Source: an uncultured Nitrospiraceae bacterium (GTDB lineage Bacteria > Nitrospirota > Thermodesulfovibrionia > Thermodesulfovibrionales > UBA6898). Taken from it: 64,000 nt of DNA. This document shows positions 23,692 to 39,751 of the stretch, piece after piece; within the stretch, counting starts at the first letter, position 1, and each line of letters begins with the position of its first letter. A model generated the notes under the pieces. It was not told the DNA's origin and made no database searches. It saw nothing but the letters and a program-made list of their open reading frames with translations. A program made the translations under genes and the position numbers. The stretch is taken from positions 672,001 to 736,000 of the forward strand of contig CAWEQH010000010.1 in NCBI GenBank assembly GCA_963811165.1. Direction: 5' to 3'.

Positions 23692-23794
23692 TCCGGTTCA
23701 ATTCCCTTCAGATGTTCCGTTTATTCCTTTTTTATATTTTACCATATAACGTCTTTGACTAAGATTGTATGGTTAGCAGGATATTAATAGAGTC

Positions 23795-24241
23795 GGGGCG
23801 TCGCCCCGTACCCCAGCTGCCTTTCTTGCCGACCAAGAAATGTAGCCGAAAGAAGTCCGACGAAAATTTTATACGGCTGCGCCGGTTGTCCTCGGTACAT
23901 TTTCGAACTCGCCCCTAACATCGGTGCTCAGACATGGGAAAATGCTTAACCCTGCGGGCGTCTGTGCTCACCTAAATTTTCGAAGGGGGTTTAAAGACTA
24001 AAAGCATTTCAAAAGGTAATTGTATTATGTACTAATGGGGCCCCTTTTAAAATTTAGGTTTCCGACCGAGGTCAAGCGTAAAAAATTGTAGACTGTCTGA
24101 GCTCCGGATTCCGGAGCGAGTTTCTACAATTTAGTGAGACCGACCAGAGGAAACCGTTAAGAATTTTATCTGGGGTGCGTACTTTTGGGCACTTTTCATT
24201 CGCATCAATGAAAAGCGCCCGGGTATAAGGGGCGGAGCCCC
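23795..24241. repeat. Two diverged ~200-bp structured repeat units in inverted orientation
   Basis: 23795-23989 and the reverse complement of 24041-24241 share ordered blocks: GGGGC..CGCCCC..TACCC, AACTCGC..GCTCAGACA, ACCTAAATTTT..AAGGGG. Confidence 0.65.
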
Positions 24242-24355
24242 TTTTTCGCCTGCGGAGAAGCTCCGCCCATTCCCTATTGATCGGATGTGCGTTATCATAG
24301 AGCATCAATAATCGAAATCATTCGCCTGATTTAATTAATCATAGAAGGAGATAAC

Positions 24356-25723
24356 TTGACGGACAAAGCGCCTCTTTATAACCTTACGATAGGAAACCTA
24401 TGGGAGAACATCTGGCGCACCTCATGGCCCATGTTCCTCACTATGGTTTTCACCTTTTTGGTCGGATTTACCGATGTCTATGTCGCGGGGTTCATAGGAC
24501 CCGAGGTGCAGGCCGCCGTGGGTTTCGTGAGCCAGTTTTACTTTCTTATTACGATAGTCGCAAACGCGATAAGCATCGGCACGCTGACGCTTGTTTCGAG
24601 GGCAATGGGCGCAGGCGACGATAAAAAGGCGATTGAAATCGCGAGACAGTCCCTGCTTTTCAGCATCGCCGTGGCCGCCGGCATCACCTCCGGCTGCTTC
24701 TTGTTCTACAGGGAGATAATCGCCTTTGCCGGCTTTCCGGAGGGCACAAGGGAAATGGCAGAACGGTTCCTCAGGATATTTGCCCTCTCGCTGGGACCAA
24801 ACTATATCCTGATAATTTCGAATGCGGTCTTCAGGGCGTCAGGCGAGGTGAAGAAACCGCTGTTTACGATGTTCCTTGTAAGCCTCATCAATATCGCAGG
24901 CGATTTCGCGCTCGTCTTCGGCATATTTCCATTTCCTCACATGGGGTACATCGGCATAGCGATCTCGACTGCGGCATCCGTCACCGCCGGAATGGCCGTC
25001 AGTCTTGGACTGTTTACTGTAGGATGGTGGCGTTCTTTTTATTCCCGCCCCTGGACCCTCTCCTACAATGTGGTCTTTAAGATCGCAAGGATCGGCTGGC
25101 CCGCGGCAATGCTTCAGATCGCATGGAATGCAGGCACGATCGTCTTGTATAATATCCTCGGTCGTCTCGGACCGGCGAGCATCCCGGCCCTGGCCTCGAT
25201 CACCAACGGGATGAGGATTGAGGCGATCATTTACCTGCCGGCCTTCGCACTTAATATGGCCGCCTCCGTACTGGTCGGGCAGAACCTTGGCGCAGGCAGG
25301 GCAGACCGTGCTGCGCAGGCGGGATGGAAGATAGCAAAGGCCTGCGTCCTTATTATAAGCCTTATGGCGGTACCTATCTTCATATGGGCCGAACAGTTCG
25401 CCTCCCTGCTTACAAAGAACCAGGCCGTCCTTGCGGAAACGGCCCGTTATCTTCGGTTCAACATGCTCTCTGAACCCTTCATGGCATTGAGTGCAATCCT
25501 GGGAGGAGGCCTTCAGGGGGCCGGAGATACGCGTGGGACGATGTGGGTGATCATTATTTCGATGTGGTTCATCAGACTGCCCCTAGCATATTCGCTGGCG
25601 CTTGTTATGGGCCATGGGGCCACAGGGGTCTGGACCGCCATGATTACGTCCATGGCCTTTCAGGGCATACTCATGTCGCTTCGGTTTCAGCAGGGACACT
25701 GGAAAAAACTCGGGTTCGATTAA
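24356..25723 (+). CDS. MATE family efflux transporter
   Basis: 12-TM pattern, SWPM...D...G; VGQNLGAG; GGLQGAGDT. Confidence 0.92.
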   Translation: MTDKAPLYNLTIGNLWENIWRTSWPMFLTMVFTFLVGFTDVYVAGFIGPEVQAAVGFVSQFYFLITIVANAISIGTLTLVSRAMGAGDDKKAIEIARQSLLFSIAVAAGITSGCFLFYREIIAFAGFPEGTREMAERFLRIFALSLGPNYILIISNAVFRASGEVKKPLFTMFLVSLINIAGDFALVFGIFPFPHMGYIGIAISTAASVTAGMAVSLGLFTVGWWRSFYSRPWTLSYNVVFKIARIGWPAAMLQIAWNAGTIVLYNILGRLGPASIPALASITNGMRIEAIIYLPAFALNMAASVLVGQNLGAGRADRAAQAGWKIAKACVLIISLMAVPIFIWAEQFASLLTKNQAVLAETARYLRFNMLSEPFMALSAILGGGLQGAGDTRGTMWVIIISMWFIRLPLAYSLALVMGHGATGVWTAMITSMAFQGILMSLRFQQGHWKKLGFD

Positions 25724-25736
25724 ACTATAAAGTAAG

Positions 25737-26951
25737 ATGCTGAGACTATTCAATACATACGGAAAAAAGATCGTTCCCTTCCGGCCGGTCAACAATAAAG
25801 TCACCACCGTATTCACCTGCGGCCCCTCGGTCTACCAGCGGTCGCATATCGGCAATTTCAGGACCTTTCTGTTTGAGGACGTACTTGTTCGCTACCTCGA
25901 ATATTCAGGGCACAAAGTGGTCAGGGGGATGACCGTCACAGACATAGAAGACAAGGCGATAGAAGAGGCGGCAAAAAACGGGACGACCGTCAGGCGCCTC
26001 ACCGATGAAAATCTAAAGGTATTCATCGGGGAGATGAAACTCCTTAAGATGAAAAGGCCCGATTTCCTTCCAAGGGCATCGGAGAATATAAAAGAGGCCG
26101 TCGAGATAATCAGGCGGCTTCTTTCACGCAGTATTGCCTACAGGCATGGGGGGAACGTCTATTTCGACCCGACAAAGTTTCGGGGGTTCGGAAGTCTTTA
26201 TGGACTCGACATGACGAAATGGCCCTCTAAGAGAATGAGGTTCCACAAAGATACCTATCCGGGCATGAGGTGGAACCTCGGGGACTTCATCCTCTGGCAC
26301 GGATACAGGCCGGGCGACGGGGACCACTGGGAGACGGCAATAGGCAGGGGAAGACCTTCATGGAACGTGCAGGACCCGAGCATGATAAGTAGATATTTCA
26401 ACGAAACCCTTTCCATCTACTGCGGCGGCATCGACAATCTTGTCCGGCACCATGACTATTCGAAGGCGGTCCTGGAATCGGTGCGGAGATATCCCATGGC
26501 GCGGTTTTGGCTCCACTGTCGTCACCTGCTGGTTGAGGGGCGGAAGATGTCTAAAAGCAGAGGGAACATCGTCTACCCCGAAACCCTGCTTAAACAAGGG
26601 TACAGTCCCGAGGAGATCAGGTTTTTCCTTGTCTGCGGCCATTATCGCAAAGACCTCAACTATTGCGAGCAAAGTATTAAGTCGGCCGTTTCGGCACTAA
26701 GGGAGATAAAGAAAAAGGTTGCAGAAATTCGGAAGAAGGCAGGCGTGTCCCGTCCCGATCAGACGATTACCGGAAAGGTCGAAGAGATTTTCAGCAAAGG
26801 GATGGACAACGACCTCGATGCAGCAGCCGCCTTCGACGGACTTCGCGAGATGCTGTCCCGAGACTATATAGAGCGCTTAAGCCCCAAAGAGGCTTCGGGC
26901 GTCGTCGCCGGCATGAAGGAGATCGACAAGGTCTTCAGGGTCATCTTTTAG
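25737..26951 (+). CDS. Cysteinyl-tRNA synthetase-like protein (paralog; anticodon-binding domain absent)
   Basis: CGPSVY...HIGN, TDIEDK, DFILW, GRPSW and KMSKS motifs; 404 aa, ending after the DNDLD helical region. Confidence 0.8.
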   Translation: MLRLFNTYGKKIVPFRPVNNKVTTVFTCGPSVYQRSHIGNFRTFLFEDVLVRYLEYSGHKVVRGMTVTDIEDKAIEEAAKNGTTVRRLTDENLKVFIGEMKLLKMKRPDFLPRASENIKEAVEIIRRLLSRSIAYRHGGNVYFDPTKFRGFGSLYGLDMTKWPSKRMRFHKDTYPGMRWNLGDFILWHGYRPGDGDHWETAIGRGRPSWNVQDPSMISRYFNETLSIYCGGIDNLVRHHDYSKAVLESVRRYPMARFWLHCRHLLVEGRKMSKSRGNIVYPETLLKQGYSPEEIRFFLVCGHYRKDLNYCEQSIKSAVSALREIKKKVAEIRKKAGVSRPDQTITGKVEEIFSKGMDNDLDAAAAFDGLREMLSRDYIERLSPKEASGVVAGMKEIDKVFRVIF

Positions 26952-26952
26952 A

Positions 26953-28509
26953 ATGCTTCTCATTTATCCGCCCGTTTCGAAACCGTCCGAACCCCCGGCT
27001 GGCCTGGCAAAACTCTCGGCCGCGCTGAAGGCCCACGGCATTGGGCACAGGGCCGTCGACGCCAATATCGAAGGGCTTCTATGGCTTTTGGGAGAGTCGT
27101 CCTTGCGGCCTAAGGAGGGACTCGATACCTGGACCAGACGGTCAGTTCGCAATCTCCCTAAAAACCTGTCTCTGTTGAAAGACCTCGCCACGTATCGCAC
27201 GTTTGACCGTTATAAACGGGCCGTTAAAGACCTTAACCGCGTCATCGAATTCTCATCGGAAGGGGCGGGCGCAAAGGCAGGCCTTTCGGACTTTCAGCAC
27301 GCAGGGCTTTCGCCTGTAAGAAGCGCTGATCTTATATACGCCGCTTCGCATCCGGAGCAAAACCCGTTTTTTAGATATTTCAGGGACCGTCTCGCAGAGC
27401 TCTTTACGGAGTCTCAGCCCTCTTTTGTCGGGTTCTCGCTTAATTACTTCAGCCAGGCCCTGACAACATTTTCAATGATAGGACTCGTTAAAAAAATGCT
27501 GCCGGGGGCCGCCGTGATACTAGGGGGCGGTCTTGTAACTTCGTGGATGCAGGGGCCTTCCTGGAAGGACCCTTTCCACGGTCTCATAGACCATCTCGTG
27601 GCAGGACCCGGAGAAGAGGCCCTTATTACGATTGCAGGCCAAGGATCAAAGAGCACGCTGCACGTCACTCCGGACTATACGCCCTTTTGCGGCCATGGGT
27701 ATATTTCACCGGGGTTTATTCTCCCCTACAGCGCCTCAAGCGGATGCTACTGGAGGAAGTGCTCCTTCTGTCCTGAGACCGCAGAAGACAATCCTTACTC
27801 GCCCGTACCTGGAGACATGGTAATCTCCGATCTGGAGAGTCTCATACATAAGACAAAGCCTGTCTTGGTCCACCTCCTTGATAACGCGGTAGGCGCATCT
27901 CTTATGAAGTCGCTGCAGAAAAACCCGCCCGGCGTGCCCTGGTATGGATTTGCACGGATCGACCGGCAGCTCACTGACCTTGATTTCTGTATCTCTCTCA
28001 GGCGTTCCGGCTGTGTCATGCTGAAACTCGGCCTGGAATCAGGGGACCAGGCCGTGCTCGACAGGATGCATAAGGGGATCGACCTGGGGACAGCGTCCCT
28101 TGCACTTAAAACACTTAAGAAGGCAGGTATCGGGACTTACGTCTACCTCCTTTTCGGCACCCCGGAAGAGACTGAGGCCGGGGCCGGAAAAACACTCGAT
28201 TTCGTCATAAGACACAAGGGAGAGATAAGTTTCCTGAACCTCGCGATATTCAATATGCCGCTGAGCACTGCTATCTCCGGGGACTTCGAAAGAAGTAGTT
28301 TTTACGAAGGCGACCTATCACTCTATACGGACTTTTCGCACCCGGCAGGCTGGGACCGCAGGTCGGTAAGAAAATTTCTTGAGGACGAATTCAAAAAACA
28401 TACGGCCGTGGCATCCATAATTAAGAAAGACCCGCCGTTTTTTACCTCAAACCATGCGCCATTTTTTCTGCCGTCTGTCGGCTGGGTTATCACAGCTCCG
28501 ACTCCGTAA
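26953..28509 (+). CDS. Radical SAM protein with a B12-binding-like N-terminal region
   Basis: GCYWRKCSFC CxxxCxxC motif; N-terminal LLIYPP...PPAGLAKL; ILGGG; LGLESG; FGTPEET. Confidence 0.85.
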   Translation: MLLIYPPVSKPSEPPAGLAKLSAALKAHGIGHRAVDANIEGLLWLLGESSLRPKEGLDTWTRRSVRNLPKNLSLLKDLATYRTFDRYKRAVKDLNRVIEFSSEGAGAKAGLSDFQHAGLSPVRSADLIYAASHPEQNPFFRYFRDRLAELFTESQPSFVGFSLNYFSQALTTFSMIGLVKKMLPGAAVILGGGLVTSWMQGPSWKDPFHGLIDHLVAGPGEEALITIAGQGSKSTLHVTPDYTPFCGHGYISPGFILPYSASSGCYWRKCSFCPETAEDNPYSPVPGDMVISDLESLIHKTKPVLVHLLDNAVGASLMKSLQKNPPGVPWYGFARIDRQLTDLDFCISLRRSGCVMLKLGLESGDQAVLDRMHKGIDLGTASLALKTLKKAGIGTYVYLLFGTPEETEAGAGKTLDFVIRHKGEISFLNLAIFNMPLSTAISGDFERSSFYEGDLSLYTDFSHPAGWDRRSVRKFLEDEFKKHTAVASIIKKDPPFFTSNHAPFFLPSVGWVITAPTP

Positions 28510-29680: not shown

Positions 29681-29816
29681 CGCAGCTTTCCCCTTTGATC
29701 CCCCTTAAAATAAACTGTCTGATTTTATTATCTGCCCCGACTAATGTCAACAAAATTTCGCAAAAAAATTTCACCGCCTTCGGTAAGGCTCAGTTATGGA
29801 TCAGAAGGCACTGACT

Positions 29817-29962
29817 GTCATTCCGGCAGTGTGTTGAGCCGGAATCCAGTGACGTGGCCTTAAAGTCGCTGGATGCCGGATCAGGTCCGGCATGACCATA
29901 CAAGCAAAGCATGCCCCGGTGAAAACCGGGGTCCCTGGATGCCGGATCAAGTCCGGCATGAC
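29817..29962. repeat. REP cluster (GTCATTCCGG.../...CCGGCATGAC family)
   Basis: CTGGATGCCGGATCARGTCCGGCATGAC at 29869-29896 and 29935-29962, plus an inverted unit at 29817; same family as inside the MITE at 20305-20386. Confidence 0.75.
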
Positions 29963-30071
29963 GGCATACATAACATAATCTTACTCGTAACTGAAGCCGT
30001 ACCCGTGTATTCAACTGCTGTGTCTTCATAACCCATATCTGAATGGATACTGCCTTCGTCAATACCACGGG

Positions 30072-31944
30072 CTAACCGCCCGCGGCCTTCAGCTCGCCGA
30101 GTTTTTCCTCAAACTCCCGCGCTTTTTTCCCAAGCTCCCCGGTAAGGGTTTCGAGTTCCTCAAAGAGAACATCTATCGTCCCTTTTGCCTCGTGGACCGA
30201 CTTCGAAAGCCTCCTTATGGATTCGCCGTCTCCTTTTACCGAGGCCTCAACGAGTGCCTGCGTCTCCTTTGTAACGGTATCTTCGAGTTGGATGATCGCC
30301 TGCTCCACCTCATCGATCCTCGCCTGGAGCGGTCCGATAGTCCTTGAGCGGCCGTTGATCAGTTCGGCCTTTATTCTTCTTAGGTCCTTTCTGTTTATCC
30401 CGCTGTCTTTTCCGTTCGGCCCGGACCTTTTTGGAGCGGCCTCTTCTTCCTCGTCCTTCCATCCCTGCCTGTCGAGAAAGTCCTGGTAACTCCCCTCGAA
30501 CGCCTCCACCTTGCCGTCGTCGAAGACCACAAGCCTGGTTGCCAGGGCATGCAGGATCATCTCGCTGTGGGTGACGATCACCACTGCACCGTCGAATGCA
30601 TCTATCGCCTCAAGAAGCGAATCGATCGACTCCATATCAAGATGGTTGGTCGGTTCGTCGAGCAAAAGAAGATTGGCGGGACTCACAAGGAGTTTGGCAA
30701 GAAGCACCCGGCTCTTTTCTCCCCCCGAAAGCACGCCCACTTTTTTAAGGGCGTTGTCTCCTTCGAACATCATCGTCCCGCAGATCGTCCTTGCGGCCTT
30801 GCGGTTATAATCAGGATGCGCGTCCAGGACCTCTGATTCGACCGTCTTTGCCGGATCGAGCCGTTGGATGTTCGTCTGTCCGAAATAGGCCGGCAGGGAC
30901 CTTGGATGTCTTGCTACGGCACCCTTGAGCGGCTGCAGTTCGCCCGCCAGGAGGTTCAGAAGAGTCGTCTTGCCCCTGCCGTTTTTCCCGATCACGGCTA
31001 TCCGGTCCCTTTTCCCGATCTTTAGGTCCAGGCCGCCTATCAGCGGGGGACCGGAGGGGTCAAAGGAAAAAGAGACGCCCTCTGCCTCGATAAGATATTT
31101 GCCCGTAAACGGGGCGGCCGTAAACGCGAAGTCGAGGTCCTTTATCTCCGACATCCTGTCGAGTCTTTCCTTCTTTTGGAGGGCCTTTATCTTCGACTGG
31201 ACCGCCCGCGCCCTCGTTGCCTGCGCCCTGAAGCGGTTTATAAACTGCTCGATGTCTTTTCTCTTCTTTTCCTCATTGACCCTGGTCTGTTCATAGACCT
31301 CCTCCTCCATCAGGATCTGCTGATAGAGCTTGTCGGTCGGCCCGGCGATCTTCCGTATAGCCGGTGCGATGGATGCCCATGGTATGAGTTGTGACACCGT
31401 CCATAAAGTCCCTGTCGTGGGTGATCAGGATCATCTCTCCCTTCCAGGACCTCAGGAACCTGGTGAGCCAGCGTATCGAGACCACGTCGAGGTAGTTGGT
31501 AGGCTCGTCGAGGAGGAGCAGGTTCGGCTCCGACACCAGCAGTTTCGCCAGGTTCAGCCGCACCTGGTAGCCCCCTGAGAGGTCAAGCGGACTGCGGGAG
31601 AAGTCCTCGCCTGAAAACCCGAGCCCCATCAAGATGGTCTCGACTTTGTAAGATTCGTCCCTTCCGTCTTCGAAGGACCTCAGTCCAAGACACCCCTCTT
31701 TCAGGACAGAGTTCTCTGTAAAATTCAGATGCTGTGAGAGATACCCGATCGTATAGTTGTTCGGAATACCGATGACCCCGGAATCCGGTTTCTCAAGGCC
31801 CGTTATCATCCTAAAGAGGGTCGTCTTGCCGTGGCCGTTCCTGCCGACCAGACCGATCCGCTCGCCGGCATTGACCGTAAAGCCGATATCGTCGAAGATG
31901 ACCTGGGTGCCATAGGACTTAGAGAGGTTGCTTACCTGTATCAT
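30072..31944 (-). CDS. ABC-F family ATP-binding protein with one frameshift near 31360
   Basis: First ABC domain ([22 protein letters not shown]) in 31291-31944 and second ([17 protein letters not shown]) in 30072-31397; the span is 3n+1. Confidence 0.85.
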
Positions 31945-33642: not shown

Positions 33643-34938
33643 TCACGAACTTTCCTTTAAAAGGGCATCGAGCGGACTCATAGGGACATTTTGAATATCA
33701 CGCAGCACATGGGTATAGATCATCGTAGTCTCTAAGCTCTTATGGCCGAGAAGGTCCTGGATCTCCCTGATGTTGACACCCTTCATAAGCAGGTGAGTTG
33801 CAAAACTGTGCCTCAAGGTATGGACCGTCGCGTGTTTGACAATGCCAGCCTTCTTCACTGCTGTACCTATGGCATCCTGGATGCCCTTGTCGCTAATGTG
33901 GTGGCGTCTGACCTTGCCGCTTCGCGGGTCGACCGAGAGTTTAGCAGAAGGGAAAACATATTGCCATTTCCATTCTTTAGCCGCATTGGGAAATTTTCTT
34001 GCGAGCGCACTTGGAAGATAGACTTCACCGTGTCCAGCTGCCAGGTCTTTATCGTGCAGAGTTTTCGCCCTCGGAAGATGGAGTCGGAGCGGCTCCTTGA
34101 CAGCCTCTGAAAGAATGGTCGATCTGTCCTTGTCTCCCTTGCCGTTTCGGACAACGAGCAGGCCTCCATCGAAGTCGATATCCAGCACCCTCAATCTGGC
34201 GAGTTCCATGACGCGCAGGCCCGAGCCGTACAAGAGCTGTGCAATCAACAGCGACGTACCTGATAAGTGATGGAAGAGCGCTTTCACTTCTTCGATAGAC
34301 AGCACCACAGGTAGTTTTTTCCCTCGCTTGGCCCAGACCATGCCTGAAATATCGCCGAGGTCCCGTCCGAGCACGTCGCGGAAAAGAAACACAAGGGCAC
34401 AAAGCGCCTGATTCTGTGTTGAAGACGAAACCTGTTTACTGATTGCAAGATGGCTCAGGAAATTCTGAACGGCTTCCGGTGTAATAGCCGCGGCAGGGTT
34501 GTCACTTGCGGTCTCCCGCATATATGCGAAGAACCGCTCCGCCCAGTCAAGATAAGAAAGTTCGGTATTGTAGGCAAAGTGTTTGAGTCTAATCAACCGC
34601 TTCATCTCTGCAAGGAGCTTAGGTCTTTCAGAAAGTCGGCCTTCCGGCCTCTCTTTTCCAGACAATGCCTTCAACTTTTCGCCGCCTTTAAAATGGCTAA
34701 GATAGAGGCGCACAGCCTCCCCCGCCTGGCGGACCTGCCAGTCATGGATGTCCTCCTTGGCTTTGAGGGAGTCCAGAAACTCGGCAACTGTAAGATCGAT
34801 ATCTTGTTGTCCCTTCCTGTTGCTGAAAGCAAGGAACTTGCTGGCCCAGATTGCCAGAAAAAGGACGTGTTTTTCGGGAGCTAATTTGTGCGAAAGAAGA
34901 AATTCTTGAAACTCAGGCAAGATCCCGTTGCCGATCAT
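33643..34938 (-). CDS. intI: Integron integrase (tyrosine recombinase) with N-terminal extension
   Basis: [33 protein letters not shown]; IntI-specific insert [24 protein letters not shown]; divergent from an attC array. Confidence 0.95.
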
Positions 34939-35052
34939 TTTGCAAAATCCCCCTTGCTATACGAACTTCGCTTTTGCCCGGTATTTTCCATCATATGCGA
35001 AATCTTAGTCAAGCGCTTTATTTATTTTTACTTGATTTTAAATGATTTTTTG

Positions 35053-35082
35053 TTGACCCCTTATAAGATGTTATGCTACATT
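35053..35082 (+). promoter_or_regulatory. Candidate cassette promoter Pc
   Basis: TTGACC-18 bp-TACATT with TG extension, just upstream of attI. Confidence 0.45.
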
Positions 35083-35088
35083 TTCGAA

Positions 35089-35120
35089 AAAGGGGAACTT
35101 CGTATAGTAATATGTTAAGC
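35089..35120 (+). other. Putative attI site; crossover core GTTAAGC at 35114-35120
   Basis: The core is the exact complement of the first attC inverse core GCTTAAC (35678); located between intI and the first cassette. Confidence 0.75.
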
Positions 35121-35130
35121 CGAAAATAGA

Positions 35131-35289
35131 ATGAATATAATTGGCAATATTATCCGATTCGTTTTAGATTCAATAGGACAAGAGGCTGATTCTAAGGAAA
35201 AGACTGAAGGATTAATTTTACTACAGATTTTTGTCTTGTTCATCTTAGCTGTCGGCGGGCTATTCTGGCTTTTCTATCACTTCATGTGA
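35131..35289 (+). CDS. Cassette 1 small membrane peptide (52 aa)
   Basis: Manual translation MNIIGNIIRFVLDSIGQEADSKEKTEGLILLQIFVLFILAVGGLFWLFYHFM; starts just after the core site. Confidence 0.55.
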   Translation: MNIIGNIIRFVLDSIGQEADSKEKTEGLILLQIFVLFILAVGGLFWLFYHFM

Positions 35290-35315
35290 AACAGAGAACT
35301 AAGAGGGAAAGATAA

Positions 35316-35663
35316 ATGTCATTCTGGTGGTACAAGCGCGATAAGAATGGGAAGAATATATTATGGCAAATCGAATTCTACCCCATGGTGTTCATGGTCA
35401 TCATCGGATTGCTTGCCGCACTAGTCGGACCACGGCTTTTCGGCAATCTAGGGTTTATAATTATTTTCCCATCTCTGCTCATGTTTGCGGGCCTTATCTG
35501 TTTGATTATCGCGAAGGTATCGCTATACAAAAAAGGCATATGGCATTCATTTGGCACCAAGAACATGTCTCTGGGCTGCGCTGCTCTATATCGGGCTGCT
35601 TATATTCTGCTAACGGCAGGCGTGGTTATATTGGTCTTGCTATTAACTGCAATACGAAAATAA
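35316..35663 (+). CDS. Cassette 1 membrane protein, unknown function
   Basis: 115 aa, about 3 TM segments, GAGGGA RBS, ends just before attC1. Confidence 0.75.
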   Translation: MSFWWYKRDKNGKNILWQIEFYPMVFMVIIGLLAALVGPRLFGNLGFIIIFPSLLMFAGLICLIIAKVSLYKKGIWHSFGTKNMSLGCAALYRAAYILLTAGVVILVLLLTAIRK

Positions 35664-35677
35664 AATGCGACACCTGA

Positions 35678-35765
35678 GCTTAACAAGAAAATCGAGGCGA
35701 CAGGGACTAACCTCGTTGGGTTTTCAGGGTATGGTTGCCCCTGCGCCTCATTTGGGTCGTTGTGT
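35678..35765 (+). repeat. attC site 1
   Basis: GCTTAAC...AAT(C)GAGGCG(A)CAGGG / CCCTGCGCCTCATT...GTTGTGT; the unpaired C and A correspond to the extrahelical G and T of the bottom strand. Confidence 0.9.
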
Positions 35766-35803
35766 GCAAATAAATTCAAAATATTAACCAGGAGACATAA
35801 TTG

Positions 35804-36211
35804 ATGGCAACAATTGCAATCATTATTAATGTAATACTTGGGTTACTCATACTCGGGTTACAAATTTGGATGAATATTAAGCTCAGATTTGCTAAGACAC
35901 AAGCAGAGGCAACAGCCCATGCCAAGAATCTTCTTTCAACTCTTGGTTTTGCCTTAATGAACTGCATTATTATTTTTATCTTATTTCGCGAATTTACTTC
36001 GGCTGCTCCACTTGATAGAAAATCATTATATTTCATAATTTCGTTCTCCCTTACCCTTTTCGCCATCTGGTTTTTATGGCTTCTAAAACCAATGTTATTG
36101 CTTCTCGGTGATCTAGTAACTCTCCATAAATTACATATTTCGGAATCTCATGGCACCACCGAAAAAGGAATAAAGACCACACAACACCAGCATCAAGCAG
36201 ACGGGGAATAA
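35804..36211 (+). CDS. Cassette 2 membrane protein (reads into attC2)
   Basis: AGGAG RBS; about 3 TM segments. Confidence 0.7.
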   Translation: MATIAIIINVILGLLILGLQIWMNIKLRFAKTQAEATAHAKNLLSTLGFALMNCIIIFILFREFTSAAPLDRKSLYFIISFSLTLFAIWFLWLLKPMLLLLGDLVTLHKLHISESHGTTEKGIKTTQHQHQADGE

Positions 36212-36269
36212 TGCCTTTTCTTTTTTCATTCATCGTTCTTCCCCCCGCTGCTTATGCTCATCGTTAAGC
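36179..36269 (+). repeat. attC site 2
   Basis: ACACAAC...CAT(C)AAGCAG(A)CGGGG / CCCCGCTGCTTATG...GTTAAGC. Confidence 0.9.
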
Positions 36270-36279
36270 CCAAAATATA

Positions 36280-36591
36280 ATGATCGAAGAATTATATAAA
36301 GAACATCTCAAGAGGAAATTTCCTGCCGGGTATGGCGGCGAGGAAGTCCTAGGCATTGATCTCGCACTGCTTGATGGAGACACTGCTGGGTGCATCCAAA
36401 CATTTATTATCCAAAAGAAAAATAACAACAATTTGGATACTAGGCGCACAGCAATTCTTGGCCTTTGCTACAGAGACCTTACAGTGGTAGTTCGAGAACT
36501 AACTGGAGAGGCAAAAGAACATTTCAATGCACTTGAAACAATGGCTCGACTAACTCTTGAGGCAATAATAAGTGCAGAACAAAAGGCTTAA
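36280..36591 (+). CDS. Cassette 3 hypothetical soluble protein
   Basis: 103 aa; stop TAA lies within the inverse core GCTTAAC. Confidence 0.75.
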   Translation: MIEELYKEHLKRKFPAGYGGEEVLGIDLALLDGDTAGCIQTFIIQKKNNNNLDTRRTAILGLCYRDLTVVVRELTGEAKEHFNALETMARLTLEAIISAEQKA

Positions 36592-36675
36592 CACGCGGCT
36601 CGATCCGACCGGGATTAAGCCCGCTCGGTTTTCGCAAAGGCTGGTTGCCCCGGCGGCTCAGCCATTTCGTTAAAC
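36586..36675 (+). repeat. attC site 3
   Basis: GCTTAAC...GGCT(C)GATCCG(A)CCGGG / CCCGGCGGCTCAGCC...GTTAAAC. Confidence 0.88.
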
Positions 36676-36704
36676 GGTAATAATAAAATAGAAAATAATA
36701 ATTC

Positions 36705-36953
36705 ATGATTCGTTATCTTGTAATCAGTTTGATTGTCTTGGCTGCTGTCGGCATACTTTTAATTACTTATGTCCAGACAAGAATAATTAAACAGCATGGA
36801 ATACGGCATTTTCAAAAAAGAGGTTTCATGAATGTTTATTGGAATGACCGAACAAAAACAGAAAGATGGTGCTTCTGGGTTGGGTTGGTACTCGCTTCGT
36901 TAATTTTTATAGTTGCGTTCACAGTTGGCATATGGCAAAAATTAAACGTTTAA
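36705..36953 (+). CDS. Cassette 4 small two-TM protein
   Basis: 82 aa; stop lies in the inverse core GTTTAAC. Confidence 0.72.
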   Translation: MIRYLVISLIVLAAVGILLITYVQTRIIKQHGIRHFQKRGFMNVYWNDRTKTERWCFWVGLVLASLIFIVAFTVGIWQKLNV

Positions 36954-37038
36954 CACGCGCATCGAGGCGACAGGGCATTAACTGTCGGTTTTTTTTCATT
37001 AATTATATTTGCCCTGCCCCTCATGCTTTTCGTTGTGG
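36948..37038 (+). repeat. attC site 4
   Basis: GTTTAAC...GCAT(C)GAGGCG(A)CAGGGCA / TGCCCTGCCCCTCATGC...GTTGTGG. Confidence 0.88.
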
Positions 37039-37048
37039 CGCAATATAA

Positions 37049-37438
37049 ATGAAAAAACAAATAATAATATTAAGCCTAATTAGCGCTCTCTTTGTCGTAT
37101 TTGCGCTCATGACACTTTCTACATTTTTCTGGGCAAAACTGAATTGGAGGATCATATTCCATGTCGTGGTCTTTTCAATGTTCTCGCTATCCGTCGCAGT
37201 TGGGCTGCTCAAACGCTACCAATGGGCTCGCTGGCTTGCAGTGGCTTCAATGACTATTGGCATTGCAAATTCTATGGTCGGTGGGTATAAGGATATTCAA
37301 CTCATGTCGGCTCATTATCCCGATGTACCCATTTTCGTATTTTGGCTCGTCGGCGCACCGCTGTGGGCTGTTATTGGTTTATCGATATGGTGGCTCGCAA
37401 AGCCTTCAACTAAAGCATTATTCATCAGTAAAGGATGA
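37049..37438 (+). CDS. Cassette 5 four-TM membrane protein
   Basis: 129 aa, hydrophobic, GLLKRYQWARW motif. Confidence 0.75.
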   Translation: MKKQIIILSLISALFVVFALMTLSTFFWAKLNWRIIFHVVVFSMFSLSVAVGLLKRYQWARWLAVASMTIGIANSMVGGYKDIQLMSAHYPDVPIFVFWLVGAPLWAVIGLSIWWLAKPSTKALFISKG

Positions 37439-37941: not shown

Positions 37942-39751
37942 GAAGCTGTAGAAAAAGTCAAAAAAGGCTGGAAGAACGCCATTCTGATTTGATAAGATGC
38001 TAGGAGACGGGTTAGCAAGGAGGGAGAGAGAGTGGCGAGATACAAAGAATACGACTATTCACAGGGGAAATTCATACCGATACAATTTGACAAGCAGATA
38101 CTACCGGGGACGTTTGAGCATACCCTTCATTATCTAATCGACAACGAAATAGACCTTTCGATCTTTGATGCGAGATACCAAAACGACGAGACCGGGGCGC
38201 CGGCCTACGATCCGGCGATACTGCTGAAGATAATACTGTATGCCTATTCCAGGGGGATCACCTCAAGCCGGAAGATAGCGCAGTGCTGTGAGGAGAACAT
38301 AATCTTCATGGCGTTGTCGGCAGACACAAGGCCGCATTTCACAACCATAGCGGACTTCATCTCATCGGTAGACCAGGAGATCATAAAACTATTTCTTCAA
38401 GTCCTGTCTGACGTGCGATGCAATGGGGCTGATAGGCAAAGAGATGTTTGCGGTGGACGGCTGCAAGATGCCCTCGAATGCCTCGAAGGAGTGGAGCGGG
38501 ACAAAAGAAGAGCTGCAGGCACAAAAAGAGAAGATGGAGAAGGCGATCCGGCAGATAATCGGAAGGCATCGGGAAATGGATGCGAAGGAGAAAGACAAAG
38601 GGATCATCGAGCAGGAAGAGAAATACGTTGAGACGATGAAAAAGAAGGTAAAGAAGATAAAGGAGTGGCTTGAGGACAACGACGACAAGCCCGGCAAGAG
38701 AGGCAAGCCGATAAAGAGCAACATCACGGACAACGAAAGCGCCAAGATAAAGACCTCGCATGGGGTGATACAGGGATATAACGGAGTGGCGGTGGTGGAT
38801 GACAAACACCAGGTGATAGTGCATGCGGAGGCCTTCGGGGCGGCGCAGGAGCATGATCTTTTAGAGCCGATGATAGAGGGGACGAAGGAGAACTTTGAAG
38901 AGATCGGAGAGGAAGACGTATTTGAGAAAGCAAAGCTTGTAGCCGACAGCGGATATCATACCGAGAAGAATATGCAGATGGTAATGGAAGAAGGGATAGA
39001 CGCATACATAGCGGACACACAGTTTCGGAAGAGAGACCCGAGGTTTGCGGATGTGGATAAATACAAAGAGCGATCCAGGAAAGAACAAAGAGAATTCAAC
39101 GGGACGAAGATGTTATACCGAGCCGAAGGACTTCACGCATCACAGAGGACAAGAAGTTTTGCATCTGTCCTGCGGGGAAGAGACTATATTGTAAAGGCGG
39201 CAATGTGATTATCAACGGATACAAGGCGATGAAGTTCCACGGGCGAAAGACGGACTGCCGGGTTTGTGAAGCAAGGGCAAAGTGTCTTAAATATCCGGAC
39301 ACGAACCGAAGCCCGTCAGGTGTGCTTTTTTCAGGGGCAGGAGACGAGACAGAGCGGACAACGTTTACCGAAAGGATGAAACAAAAGATAGATTCGATAA
39401 AAGGCAGACTCATCTATAACCGAAGACTCGGAACAGCCGAGCCTCCCTTTGCCCATATCAGTCAATACTGGGATTGGATAGATTTACCTTCAGAGGAAAA
39501 CGAAAGGTGAATACCCAATGGCTGCTCTACTGTATTACGCACAATCTCATAAAAGTGCATCGATATGCAGAAGGGTTTGCATAGAAAGAAAAAAAGGAAG
39601 GGCGATGCCTCAGTGAAAGGGCTGTAAAAGAGGATTTAACAACCCCCGTCGATCCAGAACAGCATTAACGGAGAATAAACCGGCAGCTTCAATCGGAGAA
39701 ATACAAAAGAAGATGATGAGGAATCAAAAACAGACTTATTTCTACAGACTC
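37942..39751 (+). mobile_element. IS1182-family insertion sequence (1810 bp)
   Basis: Imperfect IRs GAAGCTGTAGAAAAAGTC / GACTTATTTCTACAGACTC; GTT duplicated on both sides; transposase inside. Confidence 0.85.
38032..39584 (+). pseudogene. IS1182-family DDE transposase with several frameshifts
   Basis: GAPAYDPAILLKIILYAYSRGITSSRKI, FAVDG.K..SNAS, QGYN, VADSGY, AEPPF and W.LYCITHNL spread over different frames. Confidence 0.85.

Follow-up and report, generated by a model that had tools for sequence, protein, structure and literature searches.

The stretch of DNA analyzed here, 64,000 nucleotides from an uncultured Nitrospiraceae bacterium (the window, below, is this whole stretch), carries at 24356..28509 the genes of a transporter, a paralog of cysteinyl-tRNA synthetase (CysRS) and a radical SAM protein. 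They had been proposed, from the sequence alone, to form a biosynthetic operon. When coordinates and strands were recomputed, the three genes were indeed co-oriented, with gaps of 13 and 1 bp. The features, with their open reading frames (ORFs), are as follows.

23794-24266, no strand: non-coding repeated element 5′ of the MATE gene, with copies genome-wide
24356-25723, + strand: MATE-family transporter, 455 amino acids; ORF with a TTG start and AGAAGGAG upstream; Pfam MatE, TIGR00797
25737-26951, + strand: CysRS paralog, 404 amino acids; ORF with HIGN and KMSKS and a putative metal site, C28/D213/H238
26953-28509, + strand: radical SAM protein, 518 amino acids, with an N-terminal cobalamin-binding-like domain and CX4CX2C; ORF, Pfam Radical_SAM

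Judged from its sequence, the paralog is a member of a conserved, remodeled family of ∼405-residue proteins in anaerobic bacteria and archaea. Its best 120 homologs are 60%–97% identical to it and 403–426 amino acids long. The Pfam match is tRNA-synt_1e, and the protein falls below both NCBIfam cut-offs, that of TIGR00435 (cysS) with 288.8 against 340 and that of TIGR03447 (MshC) with 188 against 485. The motifs reported for it earlier (HIGN, KMSKS, CGP, GRPSWNVQDP and VRHHDYS) are all present in the translation, including both the HIGH-type and the KMSKS motif of the class I fold. HIGN itself is unremarkable, being present in 97% of the 60 nearest full-length CysRSs.

To map residues, 69 family members were aligned with these 60 CysRSs and with E. 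coli CysRS. The Zn ligands of canonical CysRS are taken here to be C28, C209, H234 and E238, and the roles of the E. coli residues mapped below, other than C28, C209 and the lysines, are likewise presumed. In the paralog, C28 and H234 are kept, C209 is replaced by D213 and E238 by S242. Asp occupies position 209 in 69 of 69 members, and E238 is replaced by T, S or others. Fixed or nearly fixed in the family are H206N, E208Q, C209D, S210P, P233R, N237Y and K185H, and both H224 and E238 are lost. The pocket changes do not look like drift, because D213, N210, Q212, Y241 and H188 of the paralog are 99%–100% conserved across the 69 members, and the family can be regarded as a real, remodeled one. 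On the ATP side and around the amino group, H37, G39, R42, T68, D69, D233, KMSK and W209 reach 99% conservation or more, and Arg168 of CP1, DF.LW and the HYR motif are kept. R423, D436 and R439, which we take to be the anticodon readers of canonical CysRS, are absent from the family, whose proteins end at the helical bundle. The earlier statement that the anticodon-binding domain is missing therefore holds for the C-terminal reading part, but the bundle is kept and just the last ∼60–70 residues are gone.

The inference of a non-canonical substrate from the altered Zn site holds less firmly than proposed. The Cys-to-Asp change stands, in a site whose C28 and C209 are also named in passages of PMC5660078. 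The Glu-to-Ser argument is weakened because MshC, which still ligates Cys according to the parts of PMC5370406 and PMC9437257 consulted, itself reads FPHHEYS and shares with the paralog the absence of H224 and the Y/S pair at positions 237/238. In the alignment, Cys209-to-Asp is thus the distinctive change of the family and Glu-to-Ser is not; positions 224 and 237/238 may, as the comparison suggests, serve transfer to tRNA.

The AlphaFold model of the paralog (pLDDT 91.8) matched CysRS and MshC over its full length with TM values of 0.82–0.89, and CysRS and MshC clusters were its only ESM Atlas matches. The charge differs from that of canonical enzymes. Net charge (K+R−D−E, aligned region) is +12.9 in the family (n = 69) against −4.5 in canonical CysRSs (n = 60), and +21 in this paralog against −9 in the cysS product of the same genome. 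The basic charge spans the Rossmann fold, CP1 and the bundle. An Arg lies at 234–237 in 68 of 69 family members and in 1 of 60 canonical proteins.

When 301 genomes of the phylum were searched (a match of >600 bits was called a paralog), 21 contained one, all among the 86 genomes of its own order. Beyond Nitrospirota, members were found in Syntrophales and other Desulfobacterota (5 of 221 genomes, the seed included), one Spirochaetia genome, Methanofastidiosum and Bathyarchaeia (8 of 151). A FastTree phylogeny was built from 73 sequences, with the CysRS of the genome itself as the root and SH-like supports only; it used part of the full-length representatives, and 13 of 150 were left out as partial or frameshifted. 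MshC was outside this tree, and the independence of the family from MshC rests on motif type. The family is nested (support 0.987) in a clade with three proteins whose anticodon reader is missing and whose Cys site, with its C/C/H/E positions, is intact. Two of them are annotated as cysteine--tRNA ligase (Micrarchaeia and Iainarchaeum records). A WNVQC protein branches as sister (0.89) to a group made up of the family and one degenerate sequence; this protein and two of the three above derive from Micrarchaeota or Iainarchaeum records. Further short CysRSs take other positions in the tree. Because of this nesting with reader-less proteins whose Cys site is intact, loss of the reader likely preceded remodeling of the pocket.

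Several short, reader-less CysRS-like proteins were noted (P0138, P0139, P0151, P0153, P0195, P0209, P0229 and P0241), most with an intact Cys site and three from Micrarchaeota/Iainarchaeum records. One paralog of 538 amino acids is fused behind a DUF488 domain (L147:1123-2739), the sole fusion in 158 loci; longer fusions (763–2175 amino acids) were not found at E ≤ 1e-100, which is weak evidence. No description of this paralog family was found in the literature searched, which included parts of PMC5424206, PMC8762117, PMC9437257, PMC9976931 and PMC7373986 and was mostly without subscription papers, the primary CysRS and MshC structure papers among them.

On another contig (G000:C8:198529-199983) lies a separate canonical cysS whose GRPGWHIECS and FPHHENE are intact and whose C terminus is complete, which rules out the paralog as the sole cysS of the genome. 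A second, weaker CysRS match was found in all 21 paralog genomes of the phylum, although only some of the places are among the matches listed. In Methanofastidiosum, canonical CysRS was absent from five of five genomes, and SepRS was present in the four of four tested. Since either a second CysRS match or SepRS was present, all genomes checked have a separate route to Cys-tRNA, and the case of Methanofastidiosum indicates that the paralog needs no canonical CysRS as a partner. The canonical cysS lies in frame behind cysE with no stop between them, in a 700-amino-acid frame (G000:C8:197881-199983, L046). Open frames of ∼690–820 amino acids recur in many genomes of the class, which suggests a CysE-CysRS fusion. 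In another protein, P0135, a full-length CysRS is fused behind a PALP (cysteine synthase-like) domain.

The transporter matched Pfam MatE (2.6e-50, two MatE repeats) and TIGR00797 (215 bits, cut-off 147), and no named MATE subfamily of NCBIfam exceeded its cut-off (NorM model, 90 bits against 449). Gene context was compared at 125 loci, 45 from GTDB and 80 metagenomic, some of them near-duplicates. A MATE gene lies upstream of the paralog in 51 of the 105 evaluable loci. Co-occurrence was counted in 77 of the 86 genomes of the order, with 8 of the 12 genomes of one paralog-free genus and one genome without a CysRS match left out. MATE orthologs were present in 19 of these 77 genomes, namely in 18 of 21 with the paralog and 1 of 56 without it, and adjoined the paralog in 16 of the 21. 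Among the 221 Desulfobacterota genomes, the two closest MATE proteins (59% and 64% identity) both occur in paralog genomes and the next (52%) in a genome without one. The gene tree of the MATE agrees with that of the paralog with a rho of 0.60, against 0.37 for the radical SAM gene. This strong linkage bears out the proposed partnership of transporter and paralog.

The radical SAM gene behaves differently, and a conserved three-gene operon or pathway was not borne out. All three genes stand together in only 5 of 125 loci and in 1 of the 14 genomes of the order that have all three, the host of the genes analyzed here. Of 103 evaluable loci, 8 have the radical SAM gene behind the paralog, and in six of these the paralog shares at least 66% identity with the present one. 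Of the synteny that was proposed, the MATE link thus recurs, whereas the radical SAM link is mostly confined to close relatives. At 35 other loci the radical SAM family is stand-alone, with neighbors unrelated from locus to locus. The designation of the protein as B12-type agrees with its fold, which resembles that of cobalamin-domain enzymes, but the B12-binding model PF02310 stays below its Pfam cut-off (22.7 against 32.1 bits). Its cluster motif is CX4CX2C. CX3CX2C occurs in 0 of 120 homologs, DxHxxG is absent from 117 of the 120, and the three cluster Cys are invariant in 44 sequences. Probably, the gene encodes an enzyme that stands alone and was added to the operon later, within a single lineage.

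The neighborhood was surveyed at 158 paralog loci (mean ∼9 kb). Superoxide dismutase (SOD), thioredoxin 2, Bcp or rubrerythrin was found within 21 of them. Of the 8 Bathyarchaeia loci, 5 have DinB as the gene next to the paralog and 2 have Bcp adjacent; in Methanofastidiosum, exonuclease III with an HD protein follows the paralog in 5. Phosphoglucomutase lies near 19 of the 158. SOD occurs in 21 of 21 paralog genomes and in 38 of 56 others.

The reading that we tentatively prefer, while holding it short of even chances, takes the MATE transporter and the CysRS paralog as the conserved unit and the paralog as a tRNA-independent, ATP-dependent ligase. It would hold Cys or a close analog on the putative Cys/Asp/His metal site (C28/D213/H238), form the adenylate of the bound amino acid and, like MshC, transfer it to an anionic small molecule without tRNA; the MATE would then export the conjugate, which would probably serve in handling damage or oxidative stress. 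A non-tRNA acceptor is suggested by the three pocket changes common to the paralog and MshC, and an anionic one by the basic surface of the paralog. Several observations speak against this preference. With a MATE gene missing upstream in 54 of 105 evaluable loci and none seen next to any of the 8 Bathyarchaeia copies, export is no fixed requirement. Binding of RNA would account for the basic surface just as well, and the family has kept the CP1 Arg and the HYR motif. No conserved acceptor-making gene was found near the paralog in the loci examined, and MshA does not exceed its cut-off in the genome (best TIGR03449 match 106 bits against 462.5). The 21 loci with stress-type genes fall into few related arrangements, and the SOD contrast comes largely from two SOD-less families. 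Finally, the co-occurrence of the radical SAM gene with the paralog far exceeds that of two control genes.

The basic charge and the retained CP1 Arg168, DF.LW and HYR would also suit an enzyme that acylates an RNA without reading an anticodon, whether at a tRNA 3′ end, as a stress-time backup or in deliberate mischarging like CysRS*, or on a modified nucleoside like Glu-Q-RS, with the MATE as a co-transferred stress gene. Such a function would be in keeping with the nesting of the family among reader-less proteins with intact C/C/H/E sites, two of them annotated as ligases of tRNA, and with the nucleic-acid-repair neighbors in archaea and the one DUF488 fusion. Passages of PMC9976931 add that U73 by itself gives minihelices Cys identity. 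Yet tRNA-Cys is absent from the 45 GTDB loci, the long-arm selC*-type tRNA-Cys (described below) does not track the paralog, and K185H, H206N, H224Y and N237Y alter the pocket side. In addition, the C28D and C28/209D mutants of E. coli CysRS lose translation activity, according to passages of PMC5660078 among which the single C209D mutant does not figure. We regard RNA acylation as the main rival, somewhat less likely than the preferred reading. Lower still is the chance of a dispersed pathway, in which ligase, cobalamin radical SAM enzyme and MATE act on one Cys-derived exported metabolite (a low-molecular-weight redox buffer for anaerobes, for instance) from usually scattered genes that this lineage gathered into an operon; the operon would then be the arrangement that gives the pathway away. 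The radical SAM gene is present in 14 of 21 paralog genomes of the order against 2 of 56 others, and at ≥2.4 Mb in 14 of 16 against 2 of 25, across nine genera and three families. Two control genes from the window are without such a pattern (Rieske, 4 of 21 against 5 of 56; aat, 13 of 21 against 29 of 56). Three of the five Desulfobacterota paralog genomes also have the gene, and the 1-bp gap permits coupled translation. Against these stand the rarity of adjacency (8 of 103 loci and 1 of the 14 genomes having both genes), the little agreement of the two gene trees beyond genus pairs, and the failure of the radical SAM gene to appear in 4 of 5 distant paralog genomes. In Desulfobacterota the gene occurs in 55 of 221 genomes, in 41 at full length, and 38 of these 41 are without the paralog. 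Moreover, the genomes are kin, so that the significance of the co-occurrence is overstated, and the 7 paralog genomes without the radical SAM gene also lack aat, a sign of gene loss across whole lineages. The co-occurrence itself is genuine; relatedness of the genomes and gene losses that they share could explain it.

Improbable, too, is a clean-up enzyme that would adenylate a harmful Cys analog (oxidized cysteine, homocysteine or selenocysteine) and cyclize or conjugate it for export by the MATE, or strip it from mischarged tRNA. In the pocket, two acidic residues are gone (E208Q, E238S/T) and an Arg is new, an exchange that would accommodate an anionic side chain, and damage-control genes are among the neighbors. 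PMC2865507 credits a MATE pump of E. coli with protection from oxidative by-products, and PMC3327717 is reported to tie MATE pumps to such protection as well, but NCBIfam does not assign the transporter here to those subfamilies, the NorM score being far below cut-off. The least probable of all, and to our mind very doubtful, is a dedicated pyridoxal phosphate-dependent cysteine persulfide synthase, a reported side activity of CysRS. The equivalents of K73, K266 and K269 are 99%–100% conserved, cysteine synthase lies near 3 and NifS near 7 of the 158 loci, and Cys-to-Asp mutants of E. coli CysRS retain persulfide synthesis in the sections of PMC5660078 at hand. That activity needs neither ATP nor tRNA, however, whereas the whole ATP site is conserved in the paralog; the K76 equivalent is not conserved, and adenylation would explain the conserved lysines equally well.

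The repeated element at 23794-24266 lies outside the conserved unit; five further copies in the genome are 72%–80% identical over 309–515 nucleotides, and there are shorter matches. No sign of a riboswitch or regulator was seen upstream of the genes: no Rfam match was found there, this element included, no 8-mer was common to more than 7 of 41 upstream regions, and promoter and terminator counts were at chance level. By eye, a TGxTAxAAT-like hexamer was spotted a few bases 5′ of the MATE start in several relatives (L004, L008, L009, L010, L033 and others), resembling leaderless transcripts. Elsewhere in the window, a second, different non-coding element repeated across the genome lies at 29782-30052. 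An ABC-F ATPase at 30072-31944 (− strand) is split over two frames, against a single ORF of 621–645 amino acids in relatives, by a frameshift or an assembly error. The region 33643-37438 holds a tyrosine integrase whose N-terminal domain is of the integron type, and behind it small ORFs lie in a row on the opposite strand; a transposase (DUF772, DDE_Tnp_1) is spread over several frames at 38032-39510.

Among known systems, TsrM, AprD4 and OxsB come closest in fold to the radical SAM protein, having like it an N-terminal Rossmann-like domain and a radical SAM barrel (TM 0.45–0.57, Foldseek E 3e-11 to 6e-10, a likeness taken from the predicted structure). The protein differs from them in its 14%–17% identity, its CX4CX2C motif and the lack of a family model above cut-off. 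The paralog shares with canonical CysRS (TIGR00435; PDB 1LI5/1U0B and 8QHP; HIGN-type branch) the fold (TM 0.86–0.89, ∼30% identity), HIGN, KMSKS, C28, T68, W205, H234, H235 and the helical bundle. It departs from canonical CysRS in C209D, H206N, E208Q, S210P, H224Y, P233R, N237Y, E238S/T and K185H, in a longer, basic CP1 loop, in the missing C-terminal anticodon-reading subdomain and in its accessory gene.

MshC, the mycothiol Cys:GlcN-Ins ligase (TIGR03447; PDB 3C8Z and 8HFM), is equal to the paralog in domain architecture and length. Both consist of a catalytic domain and bundle without the anticodon reader and have HH[ED]YS and an extended CP1 loop. The MshC sequence reads DIQGGGSDLIFPHHEYS. 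MshC has GRPGWHVECS, with both Cys ligands, where the paralog has GRPSWNVQDP, and it carries an HLGH motif and an acidic CP1 loop, whereas the paralog family is basic. The mycothiol pathway itself is ruled out here by the subthreshold MshA.

CysRS* (with selC* tRNA and SelB*; Mukai et al., PMC5389517) is, in the passages available, a second cysS product without an anticodon-binding domain in anaerobes, and the host genome of the paralog has a long-arm tRNA-Cys resembling the selC* described there:

G000:C4:471037-471126 (L047): second tRNA-Cys(GCA) with a long variable arm, selC* kind; tRNA call; tRNAs like it recur across the order in many genomes

In the same passages, CysRS* lies downstream of selB*/selC*, and selC* has a UCA anticodon and A1:U72. 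The long-arm tRNA here has a GCA anticodon and G at position 1, and lies on another contig, unlinked to the paralog. Such tRNAs were called in 6 genomes with the paralog and 11 without it (29 genomes behind 30 loci), and one more with the same loop was called Gly. The selC*-type tRNA was rejected as a partner of the paralog, with which it does not co-occur; and selB* was not found in the genome, where a single selB exceeded the cut-off, which together with this tRNA speaks against a CysRS* system. A further ARAGORN call, tRNA-Cys(ACA) at G000:C4:644207-644298, lies inside a membrane-protein ORF with poor pairing and is probably false.

By its motifs, the family belongs to the known class of aminoacyl-tRNA synthetase paralogs. 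Its natural Cys-to-Asp change falls on the metal site from which the selectivity of CysRS derives. Knowing the substrate of the family would tell how such a site is retuned, and might bring to light a new thiol conjugate or an acylation of RNA among anaerobes. The reader-less proteins that keep the Cys site offer natural intermediates for comparison. Beside MshC and CysRS*, the CysRS offshoots named in the part of the review consulted (PMC9437257), the family would stand as a third.

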